A stretch of DNA of 64,000 bases from a bacterium (GCA_037200965.1 JBBCGK010000001.1:384001-448000); one strand, 5' to 3'; shown: positions 11,514-54,666, counted from the stretch's first letter. The notes: generated from the letters alone by a model not told the origin. A program made the numbers and translations.

Positions 11514-12797
11514 TTATTCCGGATACTGATTCCCGGCTCCTCCGTTATAGAGTTCGGCTATTTCGCCTGCGGTGAGAGCCCGGGACCAGACGCCGCACTC
11601 GTCCTGCAATTGGTCCCCGGAGATATTGCCTCCGGCCTGGTACCCGAGCCCGAACGCCGTGGAGCTGTCGTTCTTCGTTTCCGCTACGGTTCCGGTGCCG
11701 ATGCCCGCGCCGTTCACATAGATCGTTCCCGTCGTTCCGCTCGCGGTGGCGGCGATGTAATACCAGGCGCCGTCCGAAAGCGTCTGGGGGATGGTAACTT
11801 GCTCGTTGCTTGAGCCGTTGGTGCCGAAAAACAATGCGCCTGTTCCCCCGGCATTTGCATATGCTAGACGGTACGAATTCGCATCAGACGGCCCGCCCCA
11901 CTTCGCGAGGATCGGATACATGTCCGGCGGCTGCGACCCGAATTTGACCCAGCACGCGAGCGTCATGTCTCCCGTCACGTCGAGCCCGTTCTGGGTTAAG
12001 TCGTCGGCGGTGAAATAATGCCCTGCCCTGCCCGCGCCCGTAATCCGGGCGGCATTATGAACGAGGCCTGGCGCGTACACGGTGCCGTTGTTTGCCAACG
12101 TATTGCCGCCGACCGAATCGATGGCATCGCCGCCCGTCTCGTCGAGTTTCCAGTAGGAAACGAGCGAGCCGTCCGAATACGCGGCAGGCACCGGAGCGGG
12201 CGGAGTATCATCGGGAGGAGTATCAGGCTCGTCGTTGCCGCCCCCATCGCCTTCATCATCGTCGTTCTCGTCATCGTTCCCTCCCGAACTGCCTCCGCCG
12301 GAACTATGATGAGAAGAATGGTGGGTAATAATGCGGCCGGAGGTTGACGCAGGTTTCGGAGCTCCGTATCCGAGCGCATAGGAACCTAAGTAACGGGCGC
12401 CGTCATACAGAAACGTAAACACATCGGCACTCCCCGCGGCAGCGCTTAAGGTCGGCGCTTCGCCCCCGAGCCACAGGATCGAACCGGGCCATGCGACGGT
12501 ACGGTTTCCGGACGCATCCTGGTTGAGGATAAGCTTGTATTCGCTTCCCGGCTGCGCGCCTCCGAACGCCAGGCCGATATCGCTCGTGATGAGGTTGAGC
12601 AAATGCACGTTCCCCGTATTCCAGTCGATCGTAAGCGACGAGGGAATCACGTCGGTAACTATCTTTTGCTGGGAGGGCGAAGTGGTTCCGGCGGCGAATA
12701 AGGAAAGAGCGTACGGCGGCTCCGCCGCGAGCGCTGCCGAGGGCAGAGCGAATAAAAATGCCGCTACCAGGAGCGGAACGAACGACGTATGTCTCAT
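11514..12797 (-). CDS. secreted LamG/concanavalin-A-like lectin domain protein with an acidic low-complexity linker
   Basis: 427 aa with a signal peptide (MRHTSFVPLLVAAFLFALPSAALAA) and a mid-protein HHSSHHSSGGGSSGGNDDENDDDEGDGGGNDEPDTPP linker. The C-terminal motif DGAWYYIAATASGTTGTIYVNGAG is typical of Laminin_G_3. Confidence 0.55.
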   Translation of the reverse strand: MRHTSFVPLLVAAFLFALPSAALAAEPPYALSLFAAGTTSPSQQKIVTDVIPSSLTIDWNTGNVHLLNLITSDIGLAFGGAQPGSEYKLILNQDASGNRTVAWPGSILWLGGEAPTLSAAAGSADVFTFLYDGARYLGSYALGYGAPKPASTSGRIITHHSSHHSSGGGSSGGNDDENDDDEGDGGGNDEPDTPPDDTPPAPVPAAYSDGSLVSYWKLDETGGDAIDSVGGNTLANNGTVYAPGLVHNAARITGAGRAGHYFTADDLTQNGLDVTGDMTLACWVKFGSQPPDMYPILAKWGGPSDANSYRLAYANAGGTGALFFGTNGSSNEQVTIPQTLSDGAWYYIAATASGTTGTIYVNGAGIGTGTVAETKNDSSTAFGLGYQAGGNISGDQLQDECGVWSRALTAGEIAELYNGGAGNQYPE

Positions 12798-12841
12798 GTG
12801 CGAGGTCTTACTTAATAAGTAAGCGCAACACCTCGGAAAAA

Positions 12842-14973: not shown

Positions 14974-15309
14974 TTAGAGAAATAATCTCATATACAGCCA
15001 TCTGGTAGCCTCTGTCATAGTCTGTAGTCTCCGTATTGATTTTCTTATTGGAATTTCGCCAAGTTTGTATTCAATAATGTCGCCAGTACCTGGAAGTGCA
15101 AATTCCTCAAGTAAGAATCGAGGAATATAGTGATGATTCGATTGTTCGTAATCATTGATATAAACTCCTTTTTGTAGGATTCCATATATATAAAATACTA
15201 CTTTAGATAAAAGACGACTTCTTATCCTCCTATTTAGCATTACCATGATTAGCTTATTTGCTAATCTAAGTCTCGCGATGTTTATACGCTTTACTAGCAC
15301 CGATATCAT
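14974..15309 (-). CDS. hypothetical protein in the AT-rich island (possibly a truncated orphan module)
   Basis: 111 aa, AT-rich, no recognisable motif; the start is uncertain. Confidence 0.3.
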   Translation of the reverse strand: MISVLVKRINIARLRLANKLIMVMLNRRIRSRLLSKVVFYIYGILQKGVYINDYEQSNHHYIPRFLLEEFALPGTGDIIEYKLGEIPIRKSIRRLQTMTEATRWLYMRLFL

Positions 15310-37553: not shown

Positions 37554-39518
37554 CTATGCCTCGCCCTTGAGTATTTTCTTCAGCGTCTCTTCAGGAACTT
37601 CGAAAGGCTGCACTCCTGGCGTTTTTTGCTGCGTTTGCGGTTCTTGCCGCGGTGCCGGAGCTTGGGGCACAACATCTGTCGCCGCGGAAGGCGCTACGGC
37701 TGGCTGCTTCGCGATAACGCTCGCGAGCGCGTCCTTGAGCGAACTTTGCTTCTCGGTCTCTTTCTGCTGTTTCTCCTTCCCGGCCGATGCGGTCATATTC
37801 TTGAGTATTGATTTAAGCTCCTCGGTGGTCTTTGCTTTCGGTACGGGCGGAACGCGTTCCCGGATCGGCGCGTTTATGGGCCGGTTTTGCTCTACGGAAG
37901 CGGGCTCGCCCATGGGAAGCTCTTCCCGGTGCGGGCGCGGCGGAAGCGCCTCTTCCTTTGGTCGTGGAGGGAGCGTACGCTCCGGAGAAAGGACAGGAGC
38001 GCGCATCAGGGTCCTTGCGGGAGAAGGCATGCGGGCCGGAACCGGGCGCTCGCTTGCCTCGCGCCGTGGCGCGGCAGGCACCGGGCGGGCCCCGGGCCCC
38101 GGCACTTCGCTTCCCTGGTTCGCAAGCGCCTTTTGCATGGCGACATTGCTTGGGGCTTTTCTCGGGGCCCCTGGCGGGCCGTACGAGGCCTTGCGCATGC
38201 GTGCGTCGACCGGCGCTTCGGAGGCGACGCTCGCCTCAAGCTCGGCGACTATGGCGCTTTCGATTCCTTCGCGCGGCGAGGTGAACTGCGCGCGGGAGGA
38301 GGCGATAACCTCGTTCCGGTACGAAACGGGCGGCGCTTCGATCGGCGGTATGGTTACGGCCGAAAACGGCGGCGAGCCGACGCCGTCGATCATGAGGGTC
38401 AGGTATATCTGCCGCTTGTCGAGACCGACGATGTCCTCCTTGAGGAAGGCGGGCGAAAAGACCGTTTCGAGTGTCTCGGCGTCGAAGGGACCGACGCGGA
38501 ACGCGACCGTCGTGCCCACGTTCCCGAATACGGCGTCCCGGACCTCTTCTTCCATCTGTTCGATGTACTGGTGCGCGATGACGAGGTTAAGTTTGTATTT
38601 TCGGGCTTCGGAAAGAATCTCGGCAAACGTCTCGTTCGCGAAGTTCTGGAATTCGTCGACATAGAAATAGAAGTGCGGGAGCCGGGCGAGGTCGGCGCCG
38701 TGGAGATTCGCGCGGCTCATGGCGCCGAGAAAGATGCGCGTCGTTAGCATGGAGCCCAGGAGCCGCATGTTGGTCTCGCCGACAAGCCCCTTCGAGAGGT
38801 TGATGATGAGTATCTTCCGGTTGTCCATCATCTCCCTGATGTCGAACGAGGACTTCGGCTGCCCGATAATGTTTCGAATGAGCGGGTTCCCGGTAAACTG
38901 GCCGATCTTGTTCTGGATCGCGGGCGTCGCCTCTTGCGTGTACTTGTCACCGTAGTTTGCGAATTCCTTGACCCAGAAATCCTTCACGACCGGATCTTTC
39001 ACGTTATCGACGACTTTGGTGCGATAAGCCCTGTCGGTGTACATGCGGTTCACCCCGAGAAGCGTCGCGTCCGGGTATTCAAGGAGCGCGAGGAGCGTGT
39101 TCGTGAGGATGTACTCCATGCGGGCGCTCCAGGCGTCCTCCCAAATCTTCTTGAAGGTCGCCATGAGACCCGAGACCACGAGGTGTCGCTTGTCGTACCC
39201 GACGTCTTCCATCACGTTGAAAGCGATCGGATTGTCCATGTCAAACGGCGCGAAGTAGACCACGTCCTTGATGCGCTCCTGCGGGACGTACTCCAGGAGC
39301 TTGTTGGCAGTCTCGCCGTGCGGGTCGATAAAGGTGAGACCTTCGCCGTTCCGAAGGTCCTGGATCGCCATGTTCTCAAGCAAGGTCGACTTGCCCATAC
39401 CCGTCTTCCCGATCACGTACATATGGCGGTCGCGGTCCTTCTGCTTGATGCCAAATGGCACTTTCTTCCCTCTCGAGTCGGTCGCCGCGAAATAGGTAAC
39501 GCGTTCCGGATTATCCAT
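37554..39518 (-). CDS. TraG/TraD/VirD4-family coupling-protein-like P-loop ATPase (soluble, no N-terminal TM helices) with a ~250-aa Pro/Ala-rich disordered C-terminal tail
   Basis: Walker A YVIGKTGMGKSTLL and Walker B FYFYVDEFQNFA (a DEF-type motif as in T4CPs). The C-terminus is PRPKEEALPPRPHREELP-rich. The start is chosen at ATG 39518, 6 nt after a perfect TATAAT; the track start at 39545 is a TTG. Confidence 0.5.
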   Translation of the reverse strand: MDNPERVTYFAATDSRGKKVPFGIKQKDRDRHMYVIGKTGMGKSTLLENMAIQDLRNGEGLTFIDPHGETANKLLEYVPQERIKDVVYFAPFDMDNPIAFNVMEDVGYDKRHLVVSGLMATFKKIWEDAWSARMEYILTNTLLALLEYPDATLLGVNRMYTDRAYRTKVVDNVKDPVVKDFWVKEFANYGDKYTQEATPAIQNKIGQFTGNPLIRNIIGQPKSSFDIREMMDNRKILIINLSKGLVGETNMRLLGSMLTTRIFLGAMSRANLHGADLARLPHFYFYVDEFQNFANETFAEILSEARKYKLNLVIAHQYIEQMEEEVRDAVFGNVGTTVAFRVGPFDAETLETVFSPAFLKEDIVGLDKRQIYLTLMIDGVGSPPFSAVTIPPIEAPPVSYRNEVIASSRAQFTSPREGIESAIVAELEASVASEAPVDARMRKASYGPPGAPRKAPSNVAMQKALANQGSEVPGPGARPVPAAPRREASERPVPARMPSPARTLMRAPVLSPERTLPPRPKEEALPPRPHREELPMGEPASVEQNRPINAPIRERVPPVPKAKTTEELKSILKNMTASAGKEKQQKETEKQSSLKDALASVIAKQPAVAPSAATDVVPQAPAPRQEPQTQQKTPGVQPFEVPEETLKKILKGEA

Positions 39519-39588
39519 GCGCCTATTATACACTTTCCAACGCAACGGCCGCGCCTAAAGACGCGGTCGTTGCTTATTTTCGTTTTTT

Positions 39589-39828: not shown

Positions 39829-40512
39829 TCAAGGACTCACGATGACGACAAATTCTCCCCGGATCTCGCCCGGAAACGCCGCGAAATGCGCCCGGCACTG
39901 GGTAGCGGTGCCGACGACGAGCGACTCGTAGAGTTTCGTGAGCTCGCGGCAAACGGCGACCTTCCGATTGGCGTCGAGGACCTCGACAAGAGAATCGAGC
40001 GCTTTCTCGATACGGTGCGGGGATTCATAAAAAACGACAGCGCGCCGGCTTGTTCCGATTTCCTTAAAGAGCGTCTGCCGCCCTTTTTTATGCGGAAGGA
40101 ATCCGAGGAACGTGAACTCCGCAGCCGGGAGTCCCGCGATCGAGAGTGCGGCAGTAAGGGCCGAGGCGCCAGGGATGGCCTCGATCTTTACCGATTCCCC
40201 GAGCCGCTCGCGCGTTTCTCTTACCAGCTCGTTTCCGGGGTCCGAGATGCCCGGCGTCCCCGCATCGGTCACGAGCGCGACGCGCTTTCCTTCCCCAAGA
40301 AGCGCGAAGATCTTCGAGGCAGCCTTGGGGCCGCTTCGCGCATGGAAAATAAGAAGCGGCTTCGAGATTTCATAGCGCGCCAAGAGCTTCGCCGTCACGC
40401 GCGTGTCCTCGCACGCTATCGCGTCGGCCTGCCTGAGCGTCTCGAGCGCCCGCAGCGTGATGTCACCCAGGTTGCCTATGGGCGTTGCCACAACGGAAAG
40501 AGTCCCGAGCAT
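39829..40512 (-). CDS. rsmI: 16S rRNA (cytidine1402-2'-O)-methyltransferase RsmI
   Basis: 227 aa, tetrapyrrole-methylase fold: LSVVATPIGNLGDITLRALETL...AIACEDTRVT...TDAGTPGISDPG. Confidence 0.85.
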   Translation of the reverse strand: MLGTLSVVATPIGNLGDITLRALETLRQADAIACEDTRVTAKLLARYEISKPLLIFHARSGPKAASKIFALLGEGKRVALVTDAGTPGISDPGNELVRETRERLGESVKIEAIPGASALTAALSIAGLPAAEFTFLGFLPHKKGRQTLFKEIGTSRRAVVFYESPHRIEKALDSLVEVLDANRKVAVCRELTKLYESLVVGTATQCRAHFAAFPGEIRGEFVVIVSP

Positions 40513-40606
40513 CGTGTCCGTACCTTACCACCATGCGCTTCGTCCGAACAGCGCAGGACGCTGTTCCCGGGATTATTCGTGGATAAATTGCCGGGTCCAC
40601 GAGTCG

Positions 40607-40616
40607 TGATCCGGGG
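40607..40616. repeat. 10-bp direct repeat TGATCCGGGG (left flank of the IS1595-like element)
   Basis: An identical 10-mer recurs at 41459-41468, bracketing the transposase gene. Confidence 0.5.
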
Positions 40617-41458
40617 GTATTAAGAACAAGTTGGCACAAGCGTGAGTGATTTCGTTAAGTAAATACGGGGCGAATTGAAGATTTCCGGCGAGGAAAATCT
40701 GAAGCAGAATTCCCTCACGTATTCCTCCAAGTTCTCGCTCCAGTGATGATGATACATCCTGCGCACGAAGGTGCGGTATACCCCGAACATTCCCTCGATC
40801 TCAGAGGTGTGCTCGAACTCGAATTTGGAGTGAATATCTCGCTGGTGCGACACCGGCCAGCGTTGGCTGATGTTCTTGTATATCGACCCGCCATCGGTCC
40901 AGAGCTCGCTTCCCGGCGCCACATGCTCGAACAGGAATGAGACGGCATCAGTCTTGGTTGGGTACCTGCCGTGGAATACCTCGAAGGCGAGCTTTCTCGT
41001 ACCTTTCTGCTTGGCCATGACGAGCGCGGCGTTTTTGAAGTACGCTTCGTCCATTTGGACGATACGTTCGAGCACATGGGTTTCCTGGGGCAAATGGAGC
41101 CTGAAGGTGGCATACCAACGCCTGACCGTGCGTTCCGGAAGGCCAGAGAGCGTGACGGCTTGGCGTACCGGCTCTTGTATGGTCCAGCACCAGAGCAGCA
41201 CCCACCACTGCTCGAGGGGGAGCTTCAGATTCGAGAGCCAGGTGTGCGAGGTGAGGGAGAAGCGGATGCGGCACGTGCGGCACCGATACCGCTCCTGTTG
41301 CTTTTCGATCCTTCGTGACCGGCACGAAGGACAGAACACGTTCTTGCCGAAGAGCGTACGGCGCAAGAACTTCCGAATCTGCGCTTCGCTCGGTATCTGT
41401 TTGAGAGTGTACATAGCTTCCATGGTATGGGAGCTGTGCCAACTGAGTCTGAATGCCC
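40617..41458 (-). mobile_element. IS1595-family-like insertion sequence (~840 bp) bounded by 10-bp direct repeats, with short AGTTGGCACA-core terminal inverted repeats
   Basis: Direct repeats as listed. Left end is AGTTGGCACA at 40629-40638; right end is the reverse complement of TGTGCCAACT at 41436-41445. Confidence 0.5.
40620..41423 (-). CDS. IS1595-family DDE transposase (N-terminal zinc-ribbon CPSC...CRTC)
   Basis: FCPSCRSRRIEKQQERYRCRTCRIRF, then IVQMDEAYF ... LWTDGGSIY. The start is chosen at ATG 41423 (MEAMYTLKQ); the track start at 41477 would cross the direct repeat. Confidence 0.7.
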   Translation of the reverse strand: MEAMYTLKQIPSEAQIRKFLRRTLFGKNVFCPSCRSRRIEKQQERYRCRTCRIRFSLTSHTWLSNLKLPLEQWWVLLWCWTIQEPVRQAVTLSGLPERTVRRWYATFRLHLPQETHVLERIVQMDEAYFKNAALVMAKQKGTRKLAFEVFHGRYPTKTDAVSFLFEHVAPGSELWTDGGSIYKNISQRWPVSHQRDIHSKFEFEHTSEIEGMFGVYRTFVRRMYHHHWSENLEEYVREFCFRFSSPEIFNSPRIYLTKSLTLVPTCS

Positions 41459-41468
41459 TGATCCGGGG
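41459..41468. repeat. 10-bp direct repeat TGATCCGGGG (right flank of the IS1595-like element)
   Basis: See 40607-40616. Confidence 0.5.
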
Positions 41469-41470
41469 AC

Positions 41471-41500
41471 TTGACAATACAATATACTAAGGTGTATAAT
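41471..41500 (+). promoter_or_regulatory. perfect-consensus sigma70-type promoter TTGACA-N18-TATAAT
   Basis: Both hexamers are perfect. The promoter sits 3 bp outside the IS1595 direct repeat and about 45 nt upstream of the small ORF 41548-41658. Confidence 0.55.
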
Positions 41501-41547
41501 TGATGCCGTACCCTGTACATCAATCATCACGCTAAGAGGAGAGTTAC

Positions 41548-41658
41548 ATGGATATGACCACCTTACCCTTCGTTGTCGCTTTGGCGACGTTCGGGCTGTA
41601 TTTCGCGGGCCTGTTTTTCGAGGCACGCGCGACAGCGATCCCGTACTTCCGCCCGTAG
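41548..41658 (+). CDS. 36-aa hydrophobic single-TM peptide (MDMTTLPFVVALATFGLYFAGLFFEARATAIPYFRP)
   Basis: A strong SD (AAGAGGAGAG, AGGAG 6 nt before the ATG), a perfect upstream promoter and a downstream hairpin terminator. Too short for the ORF track. Confidence 0.45.
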   Translation: MDMTTLPFVVALATFGLYFAGLFFEARATAIPYFRP

Positions 41659-41680
41659 ACCGAAAAACGGGCGTCTCATT

Positions 41681-41708
41681 GGCGCAGGCTCCGTAAGGAA
41701 CCTGCGCC
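41681..41708. terminator. hairpin GGCGCAGG-loop12-CCTGCGCC followed by CTTTTC, between convergent murC and the small ORF
   Basis: 8-bp GC stem seen directly; a second short hairpin (41651-41670) precedes it. Confidence 0.45.
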
Positions 41709-41745
41709 AACCTGCTTTTCAAGATGAATCAAAATCGGTAACGGT

Positions 41746-43029
41746 CTAGGTCTTAGGTGCGGCGAGCATGTCCGCAATTTTATAAATATCTCCTGCGCCC
41801 ATGGTCATAAGGGAGTCGCCGGAGCCATACGTTTCGAGCACCTTCTCGATAGCGTCAAACGAAGGAAGCGCTGCGGCGTCGGTGCCTTCCGCACGGATAC
41901 GTTCGGCGAGTATGTCACTTGAAATGGTGCCGTCGTCCGTCTCACGCGCCGCATAGATGGGAGCTATAAGGACCTTGTCCGCGTCCTTGAAGGCGGTTGC
42001 GAAATCGTCGAGGAGGTCGCGGGTGCGGCTGTAAAGATGCGGGTGGAAGGCGACAACGACCCTGCCGTTCGTCTTTTCCCGAAGCGCCTTCAAGGTCTCG
42101 CGCACTTCGGTCGGGTGATGCGCGTAGTCATCGTATACGTCGGCCCCGCTCTTGGTTTTTCCTTTGTATTCGAAACGCCGCCAGGTGCCGTGGAAATGAG
42201 AGAGCGAAGTGGCGATGGAACTTTCAGCGATAGACGGAAGAACGGCGCGGGCGGCCCCGGCGGCAGCGCGGGCATTCATTTGATTGAAGCCTCCCGGAAG
42301 CCGCAGCTCATAGGCAGGCTCGAGCGTATAGTCGATAACGGGCGCCACGGCGTCGGCGAGCACCGCCGCGATATTCGCGTCGTGGGGGTTCGTGACGATA
42401 CAGCCGTCCTCGGGCACGTTCCGTATCGCCGTACGAAACGTTTCCTGAAGAGCTGCAAGCGACGGGAAATGATCGGTATGGTCCCATTCGAGGTTGGTGA
42501 CCACGAGCACCGAGGGGGAGAGCTCGAGCAGGTGATCCTTATATTCGCACGCCTCGACGACGAAAAGATCCGAATTACCGGAAAGATAGTTGGAGCCGAA
42601 ATCCTTGACGATAGAGCCGACGATGGCGGTCGGAGAAGCCCCGGCGTCGGCGAGAATCTTCGCAAGCATGCCGGTCGTGGTCGTCTTCCCGTGCGTTCCG
42701 GCGACCGCGATCGTCTTCTTTCCCCGCGACACTTCCCCGAGCATGGCGAAGTACGAGAGTTCGGGTATGCCAAGCTCCCGGGCGCGCATTCGTTCCGGAT
42801 TTTCCGGAGGCACCGCGTCGCTATAGATGAGCCTGTTCGTGAGAGCCTCTACGTTCTCCGCCTTTTGACCTATCACGACCCTGATCCCCTTCTTCTCCAA
42901 TAGCTCCGTCACCGGACCCGCCTCCCTGTCCGATCCGGTTATTTCATTTCCCTGCTCCTTGAGCATTTGCGCGAGCGCGCTCATCCCGATGCCGCCGATG
43001 CCGGTGAAATGGAGTTTTTGAGGGTTCAT
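41746..43029 (-). CDS. murC: UDP-N-acetylmuramate--L-alanine ligase MurC
   Basis: 427 aa: HFTGIGGIGMSALA...IAVAGTHGKTTTTGML...VVEACEYKDH (Mur ligase motifs). Confidence 0.9.
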   Translation of the reverse strand: MNPQKLHFTGIGGIGMSALAQMLKEQGNEITGSDREAGPVTELLEKKGIRVVIGQKAENVEALTNRLIYSDAVPPENPERMRARELGIPELSYFAMLGEVSRGKKTIAVAGTHGKTTTTGMLAKILADAGASPTAIVGSIVKDFGSNYLSGNSDLFVVEACEYKDHLLELSPSVLVVTNLEWDHTDHFPSLAALQETFRTAIRNVPEDGCIVTNPHDANIAAVLADAVAPVIDYTLEPAYELRLPGGFNQMNARAAAGAARAVLPSIAESSIATSLSHFHGTWRRFEYKGKTKSGADVYDDYAHHPTEVRETLKALREKTNGRVVVAFHPHLYSRTRDLLDDFATAFKDADKVLIAPIYAARETDDGTISSDILAERIRAEGTDAAALPSFDAIEKVLETYGSGDSLMTMGAGDIYKIADMLAAPKT

Positions 43030-48933: not shown

Positions 48934-49824
48934 GATACTTAGGCAAGTTCACGTTCCCACGCAGCGAGCGGATTTCCCGCACTGCGCGAGCCCCCGGCGT
49001 GCATTTTCGATTTCAACACAGCGATCTTCCTAACCCCTTCTTTCGTGTGATGGGCTTTCGCAATCGCGAGCTCGAGGACTTGGTAAAATAGCTCAAAGTC
49101 CTTTACGCGCTTGCTTTCAAGCGGGTGCCTTTTGAAAAAAGGCACCACGACTTGCTTCAAGAGATCGTAGCTGAAGATCTCGAACCGATAATTATCCCGT
49201 TGATTCTTCCGATATTCGCGTTGGAAGTATATCTTTCCGCATCCCCAGAATTTCTGTACTTTCTCAAGAAGAGGAAGTTCGTCTTCCCGCATCTTGATGT
49301 AGTAACGGCACTGCACCCGGTAACTTACCGAGCCATGCTCTTTCTTAGGTGGAAGCAGATAGACACAGAAACTCCCTTCGCCATCGGTCAAACCGACGAT
49401 GTAATCAGCGGATAGCACGCCTGGTTTTGTCCTTCTCGCGTTCTTCTTGTGGAAGAGCGCAATACTACGACGCAGCTGACTCCCAGTGTCTTTTGATTCC
49501 TGCATACCGACATAGTATCAATGAGTTGACACTACGGGTATTCAAGAACCGTTGCCGTTGTGGACAACTGGGTCTCCCCGGGTTACGCATACTTCTATTC
49601 CATACATCCTCTACGGGCCTTTCTTCGGCACCTTCCCTATCCTCACCGCCCACTGATAGGTCGATGCGGCCCTTTTTGTGTACAGGCTGTGTTTTGCTTC
49701 CAGATCCTTCAGTCCATACCTTACGGCATTGGACCTATCTTTCGGCTACGCTCCCCACGACGAGTGAGGAGGAGTGGATTTGAACCACTTAGAACTATGC
49801 GCTGCCGGGCGCATTTATTTGTGA
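48934..49824 (-). mobile_element. intervening sequence (group-I-intron-like, ~890 bp) inserted near E. coli 16S position ~1396 (CTTGTAC|ACATTCGCCCGTCA)
   Basis: Conserved 16S sequence stops after TTGTAC at 49825 and resumes at 48933. The insert encodes a LAGLIDADG ORF. Confidence 0.7.
48939..49505 (-). CDS. LAGLIDADG homing endonuclease (single-motif type)
   Basis: 188 aa with the motif YIVGLTDGEGSF; the ORF ends at the insert boundary. Confidence 0.8.
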   Translation of the reverse strand: MQESKDTGSQLRRSIALFHKKNARRTKPGVLSADYIVGLTDGEGSFCVYLLPPKKEHGSVSYRVQCRYYIKMREDELPLLEKVQKFWGCGKIYFQREYRKNQRDNYRFEIFSYDLLKQVVVPFFKRHPLESKRVKDFELFYQVLELAIAKAHHTKEGVRKIAVLKSKMHAGGSRSAGNPLAAWERELA

Positions 49825-50395
49825 GTACAAGACTCGAGAACGTATTCACCGTAGTATGGCTGACCTACGATTACTAGTGATTCCGGCTTCATGAGGTCGG
49901 TTGCAGACCTCAATCCGTACTGGGGGCGGTTTTCGGGATTAGCTCCACCTTGCGGTCTTGCATCCTTCTGTACCGCCCATTGTAACACGTGTGCAGCCCA
50001 GGGTATCAAGGGACATGCTGATCTGGCGTCATCCCCACCTTCCTCTCCCGTGAGGGAGCAGTCTCGCCTGACATATATAACAGGCAACGGGGGTTGCGTT
50101 CGTTACCCCACTGAAGGGAACAGTTCAAACCACGAACTGACGACGACCATGCATCACCTGTCCAGCACCCTCGAAGGCTCCGTCCCTTTCGGGTCGGATG
50201 CAGCTGGATTTCTAACCCTGGTAAGGTTCTTCGCTTGCCGACGAATTAAGCCACATGTTCCACCACTTGTGCGAGTCCCCGTCTATTCCTTTGAGTTTTA
50301 AGCTTGCGCTCGTACTACCCAGGCGGCTCGCTTATCGCGTTAGCTTAGCCCCACAGAGGGTCGATACTCCGTAGAGCGAGCGAGCAACGTTTAGG

Positions 50396-50427
<32 letters not shown>

Positions 50428-50689
50428 ATCCCCTGGCTTTCGTGTGTGAGCGTCAGGAACGTACCAGTCTATTGCCTTCGCCTTTGGTGTTCCCCATGAT
50501 ATCAACGGATTTCACCCCTACACCATGAGTTCCATAGACCTCTTACGCCCTCGAGCCGTACCGTTTCCCGTGCGGACCGGAAGTTGAGCTCCCGGATTTT
50601 ACGCGAGACTAATACGGCCGCCTTGACACCCTTTACGCCCAGTGATTCCGGATAATGCTCGGGGCCTCTGTATTACCGCTCCTGCTGGC

Positions 50690-51624
50690 CATCGTGTGTG
50701 GCATGCCGCACGGGCATGCCGCTCATATCGCTATGAGGATCGGACTATATCATCACCCACCAATACTGATGGGGCTCGGCGTGTAGTCTCTGAGGGGTCA
50801 AAGTATATATTCCGATGATCAGAAGGAAGCTTGTACCTGAAACAGGGCAGGATGTAAGGGGCGACGGTTCTTGTAAACGCGTCGCGTCCTTCTTTCCCGA
50901 TATACAGTTTCGGATACCGCTTCCCGCGGCACAGCGACAAATAGGTTTTTGCCGCGATGCCGAATCTCTCTAATAACAGCGCTTGCAGTCGCTTCACCTC
51001 CGATTCCGTGAAAGAATCAGTACTGATGTGGTACGCATAATGGGATTTTGCTCGATAATCGAGCCTCCCATCATCCATGAACCACACCGCGAGCGTGAGC
51101 GGCGACCGGAACAATTCGGTGATATTTCCAGGAACGACCTTCTCGCGTCCCGCGTAGAAGATTTTGCGCATGTCTTCGAGGTTCTCGAAGAAACGCGTTC
51201 CGAAATACCACTGTTTCGTATCCGGTCTTTGCTTCGGAGGAGTTTTGACGAGATGCGCGAAGTGACTATAAAGCCACACTACATACTCCTTTCGTTCCTC
51301 CGATTGCTTTACCTGCAATCGGGTGCCTCGATAGCCGTTAAACTCGAGATTTCCATCTCCGAGCATGAGGCCTACGAGCACATCCCGTTGTTGCTTCGAG
51401 AGCGCACAGATCATCTTCACAATTATACTCGACTTCCCTGCTGATTGTCTCTTGGGATCTGATTTTGATTTCAAAGAAATCTAAACCAGACGCAGTCCAC
51501 AAGAGAGTTCCAGCATATAGCCAAGTTTTCGATCTCGATTTCTCGAGAAAGCTGCACGCGGTAACGAACGGTTCGTGAGAACCGTTCGATTTGCTCCAAT
51601 GCGCAGAGCCACCTGCGCACGTGT
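50690..51624 (-). mobile_element. intervening sequence (~935 bp) inserted in the 16S 515-region (AACTCTGT|GCCAGCAGGAGCGGTAATAC)
   Basis: The exon sequence ends at 51625 and resumes at 50689. The flanking universal-primer site reads GCCAGCAGGAGCGGTAATAC rather than GCCAGCAGCCGCGGTAATAC. Confidence 0.7.
50731..51474 (-). CDS. LAGLIDADG homing endonuclease (double-motif type)
   Basis: 247 aa with VGLMLGDGNL and VWFMDDGRL motifs. Confidence 0.8.
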   Translation of the reverse strand: MKSKSDPKRQSAGKSSIIVKMICALSKQQRDVLVGLMLGDGNLEFNGYRGTRLQVKQSEERKEYVVWLYSHFAHLVKTPPKQRPDTKQWYFGTRFFENLEDMRKIFYAGREKVVPGNITELFRSPLTLAVWFMDDGRLDYRAKSHYAYHISTDSFTESEVKRLQALLLERFGIAAKTYLSLCRGKRYPKLYIGKEGRDAFTRTVAPYILPCFRYKLPSDHRNIYFDPSETTRRAPSVLVGDDIVRSS

Positions 51625-52214
51625 ACAGAGTTAGGAGCCCCTTATTCCCCGGGTACCGTCAATTACTTCGTCCCCGGGAAAAGCTGTTTACGTACCTAAG
51701 CACTTCGTCCAGCACGCGGCGTCGCTCCGTCAGGCTTGCGCCCATTGCGGAATATTCTCGTCTGCGGCCTCCCGTAGGAGTATGGGCCGTATCTCAGTCC
51801 CATCGGTGGGGGTCAGCCTCTCAGCTCCCCTAAACGTCGTAGCCTTGGTGAGCCATTACCTCACCAACTAGCTGATATTACGCAGGTGACTCCCGGAGCA
51901 ATAAATCTTTACTCTCGCGAGACCATCGGGAATTACCCAACCTTTCGGCTGGCTATGCCCGACTCCGGGGGATCTCCCTGCGCGTTACTACCTCGTTCGC
52001 CACTGCCCTTGCGGGCCGTTCGACTTGCATGACTTATCCACGCCGCCAGCATTCATCCTGAGCTAGGATCAAACTCTCATTAAGAATAGGCGGAACAAAA
52101 CAAAACATAACTTACAGGTTTTCTTGCACCCCCAAGACCGTGCCGGTCCTGGGGACTTTATTCGTATGTCAGAGAGCAAATAAAACCGGCCCCCTGTGGG
52201 GCAGGTAAAGCCAT

Positions 52215-53683: not shown

Positions 53684-54580
53684 TTAGTGATATAGGAATG
53701 AGGAATCCGACATCACGACCTGTCCGAGCGACAGGTCTTTGACCCATCCCGGCATTTCAGTCCGATGCTCATGCACGAGCGCGGCGAGGCGCAACTGCAT
53801 GCTCGCCTCGGAACCTGTGATTTTCTTCTCTTCGATCTCACGCAGCACTCGGGCGATCTTGTCGGCAAGATACGGCGCAAGCGCTCCGGTAAACACGTTG
53901 AGCTGCATACCGGACCTGTCTCTGGTCTCTTGCGGGCCCAATGCCTGATAGTGCGTCGCAAGAAGTCCCTGGAGCGATGCGTTCGGCTTGAGCCTGAAGT
54001 CGACTGAAACGAGAGCATGGATGGTATAGCCCCCGTACCAGGCAACTGTGACCGGTACAATAGCGGAACGGCGCCAGACCGGCACCGGGACGCTACGTAC
54101 TTCCAGGCGTTCGGCCTGCACGATCTGCCCCGGCAAGAGCATCCGGCCATCGTCGGTTATCCGCACATACCCAGGAGCGGTACCGAGCAGATGTCCGCCT
54201 TGGTTTATGTAGAGCGCCGCCGCAGTCGGCATGAGGGCGAGCAGCGTGAAGACGCTCAGCGTGATCGGGATAGCTTCGTCGGTCGCTTCGTAGAACCAGT
54301 ACAGCGGACCGAAGTATTTGCGCGTCTTTCCTGTCCAATCATCTGTCCACACGAGAATAAGCGCGTAGGCACTGAGACAGATAACGCCGCCCGCCGACAC
54401 CCAGATCGGCGTCCATTCCCAGAACGCGGCATTGTCTTCCATGGCGCTCACCCCATAGGCGTCCAATAGATACAGGGACGAAAAAAGAAAAGCGGCGACA
54501 CTCACGGCGAAACCGGCAGCAATAAAGGCGGTCCGGCCCAGCCAGTGTGGGAGCTCGAAGCTCCGCGTTGTTGCAGTCAT
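53684..54580 (-). CDS. hypothetical membrane protein (4 TM N-terminal domain + soluble C-terminal domain)
   Basis: 298 aa; no motif recognised. Confidence 0.35.
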   Translation of the reverse strand: MTATTRSFELPHWLGRTAFIAAGFAVSVAAFLFSSLYLLDAYGVSAMEDNAAFWEWTPIWVSAGGVICLSAYALILVWTDDWTGKTRKYFGPLYWFYEATDEAIPITLSVFTLLALMPTAAALYINQGGHLLGTAPGYVRITDDGRMLLPGQIVQAERLEVRSVPVPVWRRSAIVPVTVAWYGGYTIHALVSVDFRLKPNASLQGLLATHYQALGPQETRDRSGMQLNVFTGALAPYLADKIARVLREIEEKKITGSEASMQLRLAALVHEHRTEMPGWVKDLSLGQVVMSDSSFLYH

Positions 54581-54666
54581 TGGATTATCCTCCGTAACGA
54601 GCTTGGTTGCCTAAGGCATTATAGCAGATAAACGTGGCACTGTAAAACGACGACGTCCACTGATCG

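Follow-up and report, generated by a model that had tools for sequence, protein, structure and literature searches.

A consensus promoter, a 36-codon reading frame and a variable slot between murC and rsmI in a CPR bacterium

The only perfect consensus promoter in a 64-kb stretch of bacterial DNA (referred to here as the window) is followed by a strong ribosome-binding site and by nothing larger than a 36-codon reading frame, and it begins immediately beyond the end of an insertion sequence (IS). The locus thus raises the question of what such signals are for, and whether the IS has any part in them. The original prediction, made from the window alone, described a strong expression signal serving only a tiny hydrophobic peptide, and proposed as explanations a type I toxin-like peptide, a leader peptide or an IS-associated hybrid promoter. 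The description has stood up well, whereas the three specific explanations fared poorly; the comparison with related genomes points instead to a slot between murC and rsmI that houses variable accessory genes.

The locus and its expression signals

The 16S rRNA gene of the window (49773-52084, minus strand) is divided in two by about 730 bp of inserted DNA (50829-51561), and the nearest relatives of the MurC protein come from Kaiserbacteria, Paceibacterota and other Patescibacteria MAGs, which together identify the host as a CPR bacterium (Paceibacteria/Kaiserbacteria-like). The ORF of the 16S insertion (50731-51474) encodes a LAGLIDADG_2 homing endonuclease (Pfam, 1.5e-32), an arrangement typical of CPR bacteria, and a promoter-like sequence with 10/12 matches, GAGACA-18-TATAAT (from 51451, minus strand), lies inside this insertion, just downstream of the listed TTG start of the ORF. 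The features of the locus under study are as follows.

37554-39545, minus strand: gene for a TraG/VirD4-like coupling-protein ATPase, downstream of rsmI
39829-40512, minus strand: rsmI (16S rRNA 2'-O-methyltransferase-like), assigned by Pfam TP_methylase (1.3e-34) and synteny
40522-40530, minus strand: putative extended -10 of rsmI, TGgTAAGGT, 9 nt before the rsmI ATG
40607-40614, unstranded: left copy of the 8-bp target-site duplication TGATCCGG
40615-41458, minus strand: IS1595-family insertion sequence of 844 bp, assigned by inverted repeats, transposase Pfam match and 8-bp duplication
40620-41414, minus strand: transposase gene, DDE_Tnp_IS1595 (PF12762, 9.6e-13)
41459-41466, unstranded: right copy of the 8-bp target-site duplication TGATCCGG
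41471-41500, plus strand: sigma70-type promoter TTGACA-18 nt-TATAAT, 12/12 match (-35 at 41471-41476; -10 at 41495-41500)
41499-41524, unstranded: perfect 7-bp inverted repeat ATTGATG-N12-CATCAAT
41536-41540, plus strand: Shine-Dalgarno (SD) sequence AGGAG
41548-41658, plus strand: 36-codon ORF for a single-pass hydrophobic peptide
41650-41673, plus strand: hairpin 1, with a 7-bp GC stem, overlapping the stop codon
41679-41710, unstranded: hairpin 2, of about 14 bp, between the convergent peptide gene and murC
41746-43029, minus strand: murC, convergent with the peptide gene and assigned by the Pfam Mur_ligase N, M and C domains

Both promoter hexamers are perfect and separated by 18 nt, exactly as first described, and this is the sole 12/12 promoter match in the window, in agreement with the view that it is the strongest canonical expression signal there. 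A search of both strands for TTGACA-N18-TATAAT, with one mismatch permitted, returned this single hit from the 64 kb; 0.08 hits are expected by chance, and at least one match was obtained in 8 of 100 shuffled sequences. With spacers of 16-18 nt, three further sites reach at least 10/12, the next best being an 11/12 site at 54646 on the minus strand. The host places sigma70-like promoters and SD sequences before real genes, as illustrated by TTGACG...TATAGT upstream of the 16S rRNA gene. The 11/12 site, TTTACA-17-TATAAT, is itself followed by GGAGG and an ATG (54580-54646, minus strand), and the gene behind it is a 298-aa ORF (53684-54580) without a Pfam match. Judging from the position of the promoter, transcription is predicted to start at about 41507-41508. 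The perfect inverted repeat spans the -10 hexamer and this start site and could be an operator, a case weakened by the occurrence of a comparable repeat in 4.4% of shuffled sequences.

The SD sequence lies 35 nt after the -10 hexamer, closer than the approximately 45 nt originally quoted, and 7 nt separate it from the ATG at 41548. The predicted structure of the 5' UTR does not exceed that of its shuffled counterparts (z +0.26), and the SD sequence is free of predicted pairing. The ORF, which is called as a gene in the public record, encodes MDMTTLPFVVALATFGLYFAGLFFEARATAIPYFRP, a peptide with an acidic N-end, an unbroken hydrophobic stretch at residues ~6-24, and Arg27 and Arg35 at its C-end. 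Its segment FVVALATFGLYFAGL contains 11 hydrophobic residues out of 15 and passes the 10-of-15 rule for transmembrane (TM) segments (I, V, L, F, C, M, A), and in the C-terminal EARATAIPYFRP polar or aromatic residues occupy 6 of 12 positions. The AGGAG sequence and the 36-aa single-TM peptide were thus correctly recognized at the outset. Among the three intergenic short ORFs with a strong SD sequence in the 64 kb, that at 41548-41658 is the sole TM-like one. The other two (AGGAG or GGAGG at 4-9 nt), at 12682-12822 on the plus strand and 15045-15155 on the minus strand, encode 46 and 36 aa, respectively, and neither product is hydrophobic.

The ORF ends 87 nt from the convergent murC gene, and two hairpins fall at and beyond its stop codon. 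Hairpin 1 has a predicted energy of -12 kcal/mol (z -2.9) and hairpin 2 of -24.3 kcal/mol (z -4.8); the latter, set between the two converging genes, is likely the bidirectional transcript end. Both had been described as terminators. Stable folds they certainly are; terminators they may be, the U-tracts of both being poor (CCUGCUUUUC; CUUUUC on the plus strand of hairpin 2) and a terminator scan of the window having flagged neither. A 23-nt pairing of 41609-41631 with 41650-41672 (74% complementary) offers an alternative to hairpin 1, but the minimum-energy fold retains hairpin 1, and the z-score of this region is only -1.4.

The adjacent IS1595 element

Imperfect inverted repeats of 24 nt (40615-40638 and 41435-41458), with 79% complementarity, bound the IS. 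Its transposase also contains the IS1595 zinc ribbon PF12760, with a value of 4.3e-05 that falls slightly short of the cut-off of this model. The -35 hexamer starts 12 nt past the IS end and 4 bp past the target duplication; the original prediction had the promoter facing away from the IS, which is correct, and placed it 3 bp past the direct repeat, which is one base pair too close. Since neither hexamer reaches into the IS or its duplication, the promoter was not made by the IS. In an IS hybrid promoter, the -35 hexamer is supplied by the IS end and the -10 hexamer by the flanking DNA. The present locus resembles hybrid and outward promoters of insertion sequences in having a strong promoter that adjoins an IS end and faces away from it, but differs from them in that the complete promoter is located in the unique flank beyond the duplication. 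Candidate promoters that use the IS end as a -35 reach only 8/12, with 19-nt spacers. The notion of an IS-associated hybrid promoter is further contradicted by IS-free relatives that carry an analogous promoter at the same position and in the same orientation (see below), and the link between IS1595 and the promoter is incidental.

Independent assemblies of the same locus break at the ends of this element and thereby confirm its boundaries. The Logan contig from the source sample begins 30 nt inside the right end of the IS, and that from a second sample stops 29 nt inside the left end; in a second MAG (GCA_015655515.1), two contigs reach 139-140 nt into the IS, one from the left and one from the right. 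Expressed by locus, the assembly ends fall 29-30 nt inside the IS in L002 and L165 and 139-140 nt inside it in L164 and L166. These overhangs correspond to k-1 for k values that we infer to be 31 and 141, and would be expected at a repeat or at a presence/absence polymorphism; short-read contigs that break exactly at the IS ends suggest that the element is multi-copy or polymorphic in the population. The second MAG (GCA_015655515.1 / SRR10968228), which derives from another sample, has the same IS1595 at the same site and is otherwise 99.98-100% identical. No second copy of the IS and no second promoter-peptide module was found within the window, and exact-protein look-ups with the peptide, RsmI, MurC and the transposase, in search of a closer strain or an IS-free allele, returned the source genome and one identical MAG only. 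On the other side of the element, the interval from the IS to the putative rsmI promoter contains a perfect 8-bp hairpin, GAACAGCG-N5-CGCTGTTC (40546-40566), ~35-55 nt ahead of the rsmI start; it is followed by a U-tract on neither strand.

A variable slot between murC and rsmI in related genomes

The locus was compared with 160 related Patescibacteria murC loci, drawn in equal numbers (80 each) from genomes and metagenomes, with MurC identities of at most ~75%. In these loci, murC, rsmI and the traG-like gene keep their order and run in the same direction. The TraG/VirD4-like ATPase is unusually conserved and always syntenic, with 80-89% identity in relatives whose MurC proteins share only 60-75%. 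Both murC and rsmI were present in 82 loci, and in 28 of these the gap between them is 60 bp or less, often with the genes overlapping in an operon-like manner. Across the compared loci (L003-L162), the murC-rsmI junction behaves as a hot spot of gene turnover, ranging from such overlaps up to inserts of 0.1-2.2 kb.

In the loci with a MurC identity of at least 65% and a murC-rsmI gap, a promoter with 10-11 of 12 matches, antisense to the surrounding genes and directed toward murC, was the usual finding, with 14 occurrences (about 12 distinct loci). Its consensus is TTGAC[A/T]-N16(-17)-TA[T/C/G][A/G]AT, located 18-42 nt past the rsmI ATG. In these relatives, the slot promoter leads through a 37-64-nt UTR and AGGAG to the ATG of a gene that belongs, depending on the locus, to one or another of the four unrelated families listed below.

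F0: unknown family, 137-327 aa, 12 loci
DUF218-like: 6 loci
MaoC-like: 5 loci
F3: unknown family, 65-84 aa, 4 loci

In one sub-group, the same promoter sequence, CACTCTACCGCAG-TTGACAT-N9-CAATACGATACAAT, is common to three cargo types. A GGAAGAAC-like motif recurs 8-12 nt past the -10 of the slot promoter, independent of the cargo. Genes inserted at the junction also include those for a YkuD L,D-transpeptidase, NUDIX proteins and helix-turn-helix-like proteins of 88-93 aa (ArsR-like by eye). A possible resemblance of F0 to the peptidoglycan-editing factor PgeF/YfiH was supported neither by Pfam nor by a profile search of PDB sequences and was dropped, and a kinship of F3 with the 36-residue peptide, considered for its N-terminus (MDM.. 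versus MDI..) and for the SD regions, was rejected because too few bases are shared.

The signals in the window agree with those of relatives such as L005, L008, L039, L083, L088, L093 and L096 in lying between the 3' end of murC and the 5' end of rsmI, in being antisense to the murC-rsmI-traG-like array, in the promoter-UTR-AGGAG-ATG layout, and in an end that is convergent with murC. They differ in the spacer (18 nt, against 16 nt in the relatives), in the distance to rsmI (about 106 nt plus the IS, against a slot promoter that overlaps the rsmI promoter), and in the cargo, which in the relatives measures 65-327 aa, whereas the 36-aa TM peptide of the window is unrelated to all four families. 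No alignment of the window promoter and UTR to the slot DNA of the relatives was detectable by blastn or nhmmer. By position and orientation, and by these only, the signals in the window are the positional equivalent of the slot promoter.

The closest relative, L003, has a nearly empty slot, in which the promoter, SD sequence and ATG are kept and a 34-codon ORF runs into a good terminator; the -10 of its promoter is changed to TGCAAT, in contrast to the perfect hexamers of the window. On the rsmI side, the putative -10 lies only 9 nt from the rsmI ATG, so that the rsmI mRNA would be leaderless or nearly so. A counterpart of its TAAGGT core, the conserved TAGAGT, is found 5-7 nt before the rsmI ATG of the relatives (L003, L005, L008, L083, L088, L093 and L096). 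Their rsmI -35, TTG(T/C)(T/C)A, falls within the spacer of the slot promoter, which points the other way, and the two promoters overlap back-to-back.

Possible products of the slot and their meaning

The peptide itself is a complete orphan. An exhaustive HMMER search of 1.84 billion (1.84e9) protein representatives returned the query alone; Pfam and NCBIfam gave no match at E <=10, PHROGs gave one chance-level hit (E = 0.1), and comparison of the peptide, of the 305-bp module and of the IS-excised intergenic region with the 160 murC loci (tblastn, blastn, nhmmer) yielded nothing. Its only carriers are two MAGs, which are identical. The original prediction had proposed absence of the peptide from relatives as an outcome that would count against it, and on the letter of that test the result goes against it, no relative carrying the peptide; non-conservation is, however, weak evidence here, since the nearest different genome shares only ~75% MurC identity.

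The ORF scores 0.21 bits/codon, which falls within the distribution of true frames (26th percentile) and is exceeded by only 10% of off-frame windows, and its GC3 of 0.78 compares with 0.68-0.76 in neighbouring genes. A gene is favoured by these values, the ideal 7-nt SD spacing, the unstructured 5' UTR and the unique 12/12 promoter. Against it stand an antisense frame that equals the codon score of the ORF, a chance that we estimate at about one in four for a 36-codon open frame to follow a start codon at this base composition, and the example of L003, where the slot is essentially empty. On balance, and tentatively, the reading that we favour is a lineage-specific gene for a small membrane protein, monocistronic and served by the native promoter of the slot, with IS1595 incidental to it. 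Transcription, translation, membrane insertion and the peptide, as opposed to the RNA, as the product are all what we infer from these signals. Under the reading as a small gene, the promoter and ribosome-binding site would be native chromosomal signals of a slot for variable accessory genes at the murC-rsmI junction; they would drive a monocistronic mRNA of ~210 nt (~41507 to 41715), whose sole ORF would encode a peptide of 36 residues, restricted to this lineage and with a single transmembrane helix, and the transcript would stop at the strong hairpin shared with convergent murC. The IS1595 element, having landed 4 bp upstream of the -35, would at most have cost the promoter its upstream context and separated it from rsmI. 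Small membrane proteins such as AcrZ, MgtS, CydX and KdpF offer a likeness, being of ~30-50 aa with one TM helix and an SD sequence of their own, and often poorly conserved, but they form recognisable families, in contrast to the present peptide, for which neither Pfam nor NCBIfam yields a model and whose gene would be monocistronic. AcrZ, MgtS, CydX and KdpF also have, for the most part, a known partner complex, with which they are co-transcribed or on which they act.

A close rival to the small-gene reading, possible though given a lower probability, is that the slot is a relic: the signals would have outlived a cargo gene that was deleted or replaced, and the 36-codon frame would be fortuitous and without a selected function. 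The variability of the cargo among relatives, the 28 of 82 loci in which the slot is absent (gap <=60 bp), and the closest relative, with its promoter, SD sequence, ATG and mere 34-codon ORF running into a terminator, all fit such a course of events, as do the orphan status of the peptide and the size of the gap, which without the IS is 381 bp and thus near the small slots of the relatives (353-388 bp). Other observations speak against a relic. In L003 the -10 has decayed, while in the window the hexamers and SD spacing are perfect, which fits ongoing use or very recent loss; moreover, the frame has a gene-like GC3 and a clean TM segment. Remnants of the four cargo families were sought with profile HMMs in the six frames of 41467-41800 and were not found, so that a relic, if it is one, would be beyond recognition. 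One pairwise tblastn hit had suggested a decayed remnant of the L010 slot gene (30% identity over 46 aa, opposite strand, E = 3e-4 uncorrected for ~250 queries); it was not reproduced by the profiles and was rejected as chance, because the family profile HMM scores are all about zero or below.

An RNA as the product, regulatory or dual-function, or an effect of the convergent transcription on the 3' end of murC, appears improbable. The strong promoter and the very stable hairpin bound a short transcript, whose fold as a whole gives z = -3.05 and which converges on murC, where the murC-side hairpin has no U-tract. Almost all of this structural signal, however, comes from the terminal hairpins, the 5' half being unstructured, and a strong, well-spaced SD sequence with an ATG would be unexpected in a purely non-coding RNA. 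Rfam 15, applied to 40400-41900 at E <=10 and to the whole window at the gathering score, gave no RNA family at this locus (best 12.5 bits, against a cut-off of 50), no homologues were found that could supply covariation, and neither a tRNA nor a tmRNA was found at the peptide locus.

We regard it as still less likely that the peptide is a type I toxin, whose synthesis would be restrained by an antisense RNA that escaped detection, by overlap with the 3' end of the murC mRNA, or by a repressor at the -10 repeat. The comparable version in which a membrane-active toxin-like or regulatory protein is controlled by such a repressor or by the converging 3' end of murC, an essential cell-wall gene, is about equally doubtful. 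Like Hok/Gef, Ldr/Fst, TisB, Ibs, ZorO and BsrG, the product would be a short peptide from an intergenic region, with a single TM segment and a C-terminus that may count as partly charged or aromatic. The search for such toxins by Fozo et al. (2010; PMC2887945) used a length below 70 aa and at least 10 of 15 residues from I, V, L, F, C, M and A, together with at least 400 nt upstream and at least 250 nt downstream. The peptide has the length and the TM segment sought there, and its C-terminus may pass as the partly polar or aromatic one; the 7-bp inverted repeat lies across the -10 and start site, and hairpin 1 overlaps the stop codon, where read-through from murC could cover it. The flanks, on the other hand, are much tighter than in that search, with 87 nt on the murC side and 134 nt upstream of the ORF (about 184 nt toward rsmI before the IS inserted). 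The original prediction had advised looking for an antisense sRNA, and no minus-strand promoter of at least 9/12 was found in 41440-41800, the best being 8/12. In contrast to known type I toxins, the SD sequence is not sequestered by a structured 5' UTR, tandem or dispersed paralogues are absent from the window, and no Pfam or NCBIfam match to Hok, Ldr, Fst, TisB, Ibs or another family was obtained, so that of the toxin-like character only the generic peptide features stand. A toxin expressed without repression from a 12/12 promoter could hardly be tolerated by the cell; the accessible SD sequence and the constitutive-looking promoter argue against a toxin and for a small membrane protein that is abundant and tolerated. 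Patescibacteria are not among the phyla listed with type I systems in the abstract of PMC12390103.

We give hardly any weight to the pair of readings that comprises an attenuator leader peptide and a hybrid or outward promoter produced by the IS1595 insertion. The pairing that competes with hairpin 1 might suit the former, and the 4 bp between promoter and target duplication the latter. A leader peptide, as had been suggested, would nevertheless require something to lead, and the next gene is the convergent murC, with no co-oriented gene downstream; the six Phe residues of the peptide are scattered and form no regulatory-codon run. The latter reading meets the obstacles described above: hexamers outside the IS and its duplication, poor IS-end-spanning sites, and IS-free relatives with promoters at the same place.

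The most useful outcome of the analysis is the context of the peptide, namely a conserved, strongly promoted, antisense and variable slot beside an apparently leaderless rsmI. In this lineage, the murC-rsmI junction recurrently houses an interchangeable accessory gene, antisense and strongly promoted, back-to-back with rsmI, and this arrangement is useful for the annotation and engineering of uncultured genomes. If the slot of the window is a relic, it illustrates that perfect expression signals can outlast their gene, and calls for caution in small-ORF prediction. If the peptide is made, an ultra-small CPR bacterium, one of a group with few spare genes and with envelopes that mediate an episymbiotic lifestyle, would strongly express a small membrane protein specific to its species, and the gene would be a candidate for very recent birth or capture downstream of a strong promoter that already existed.
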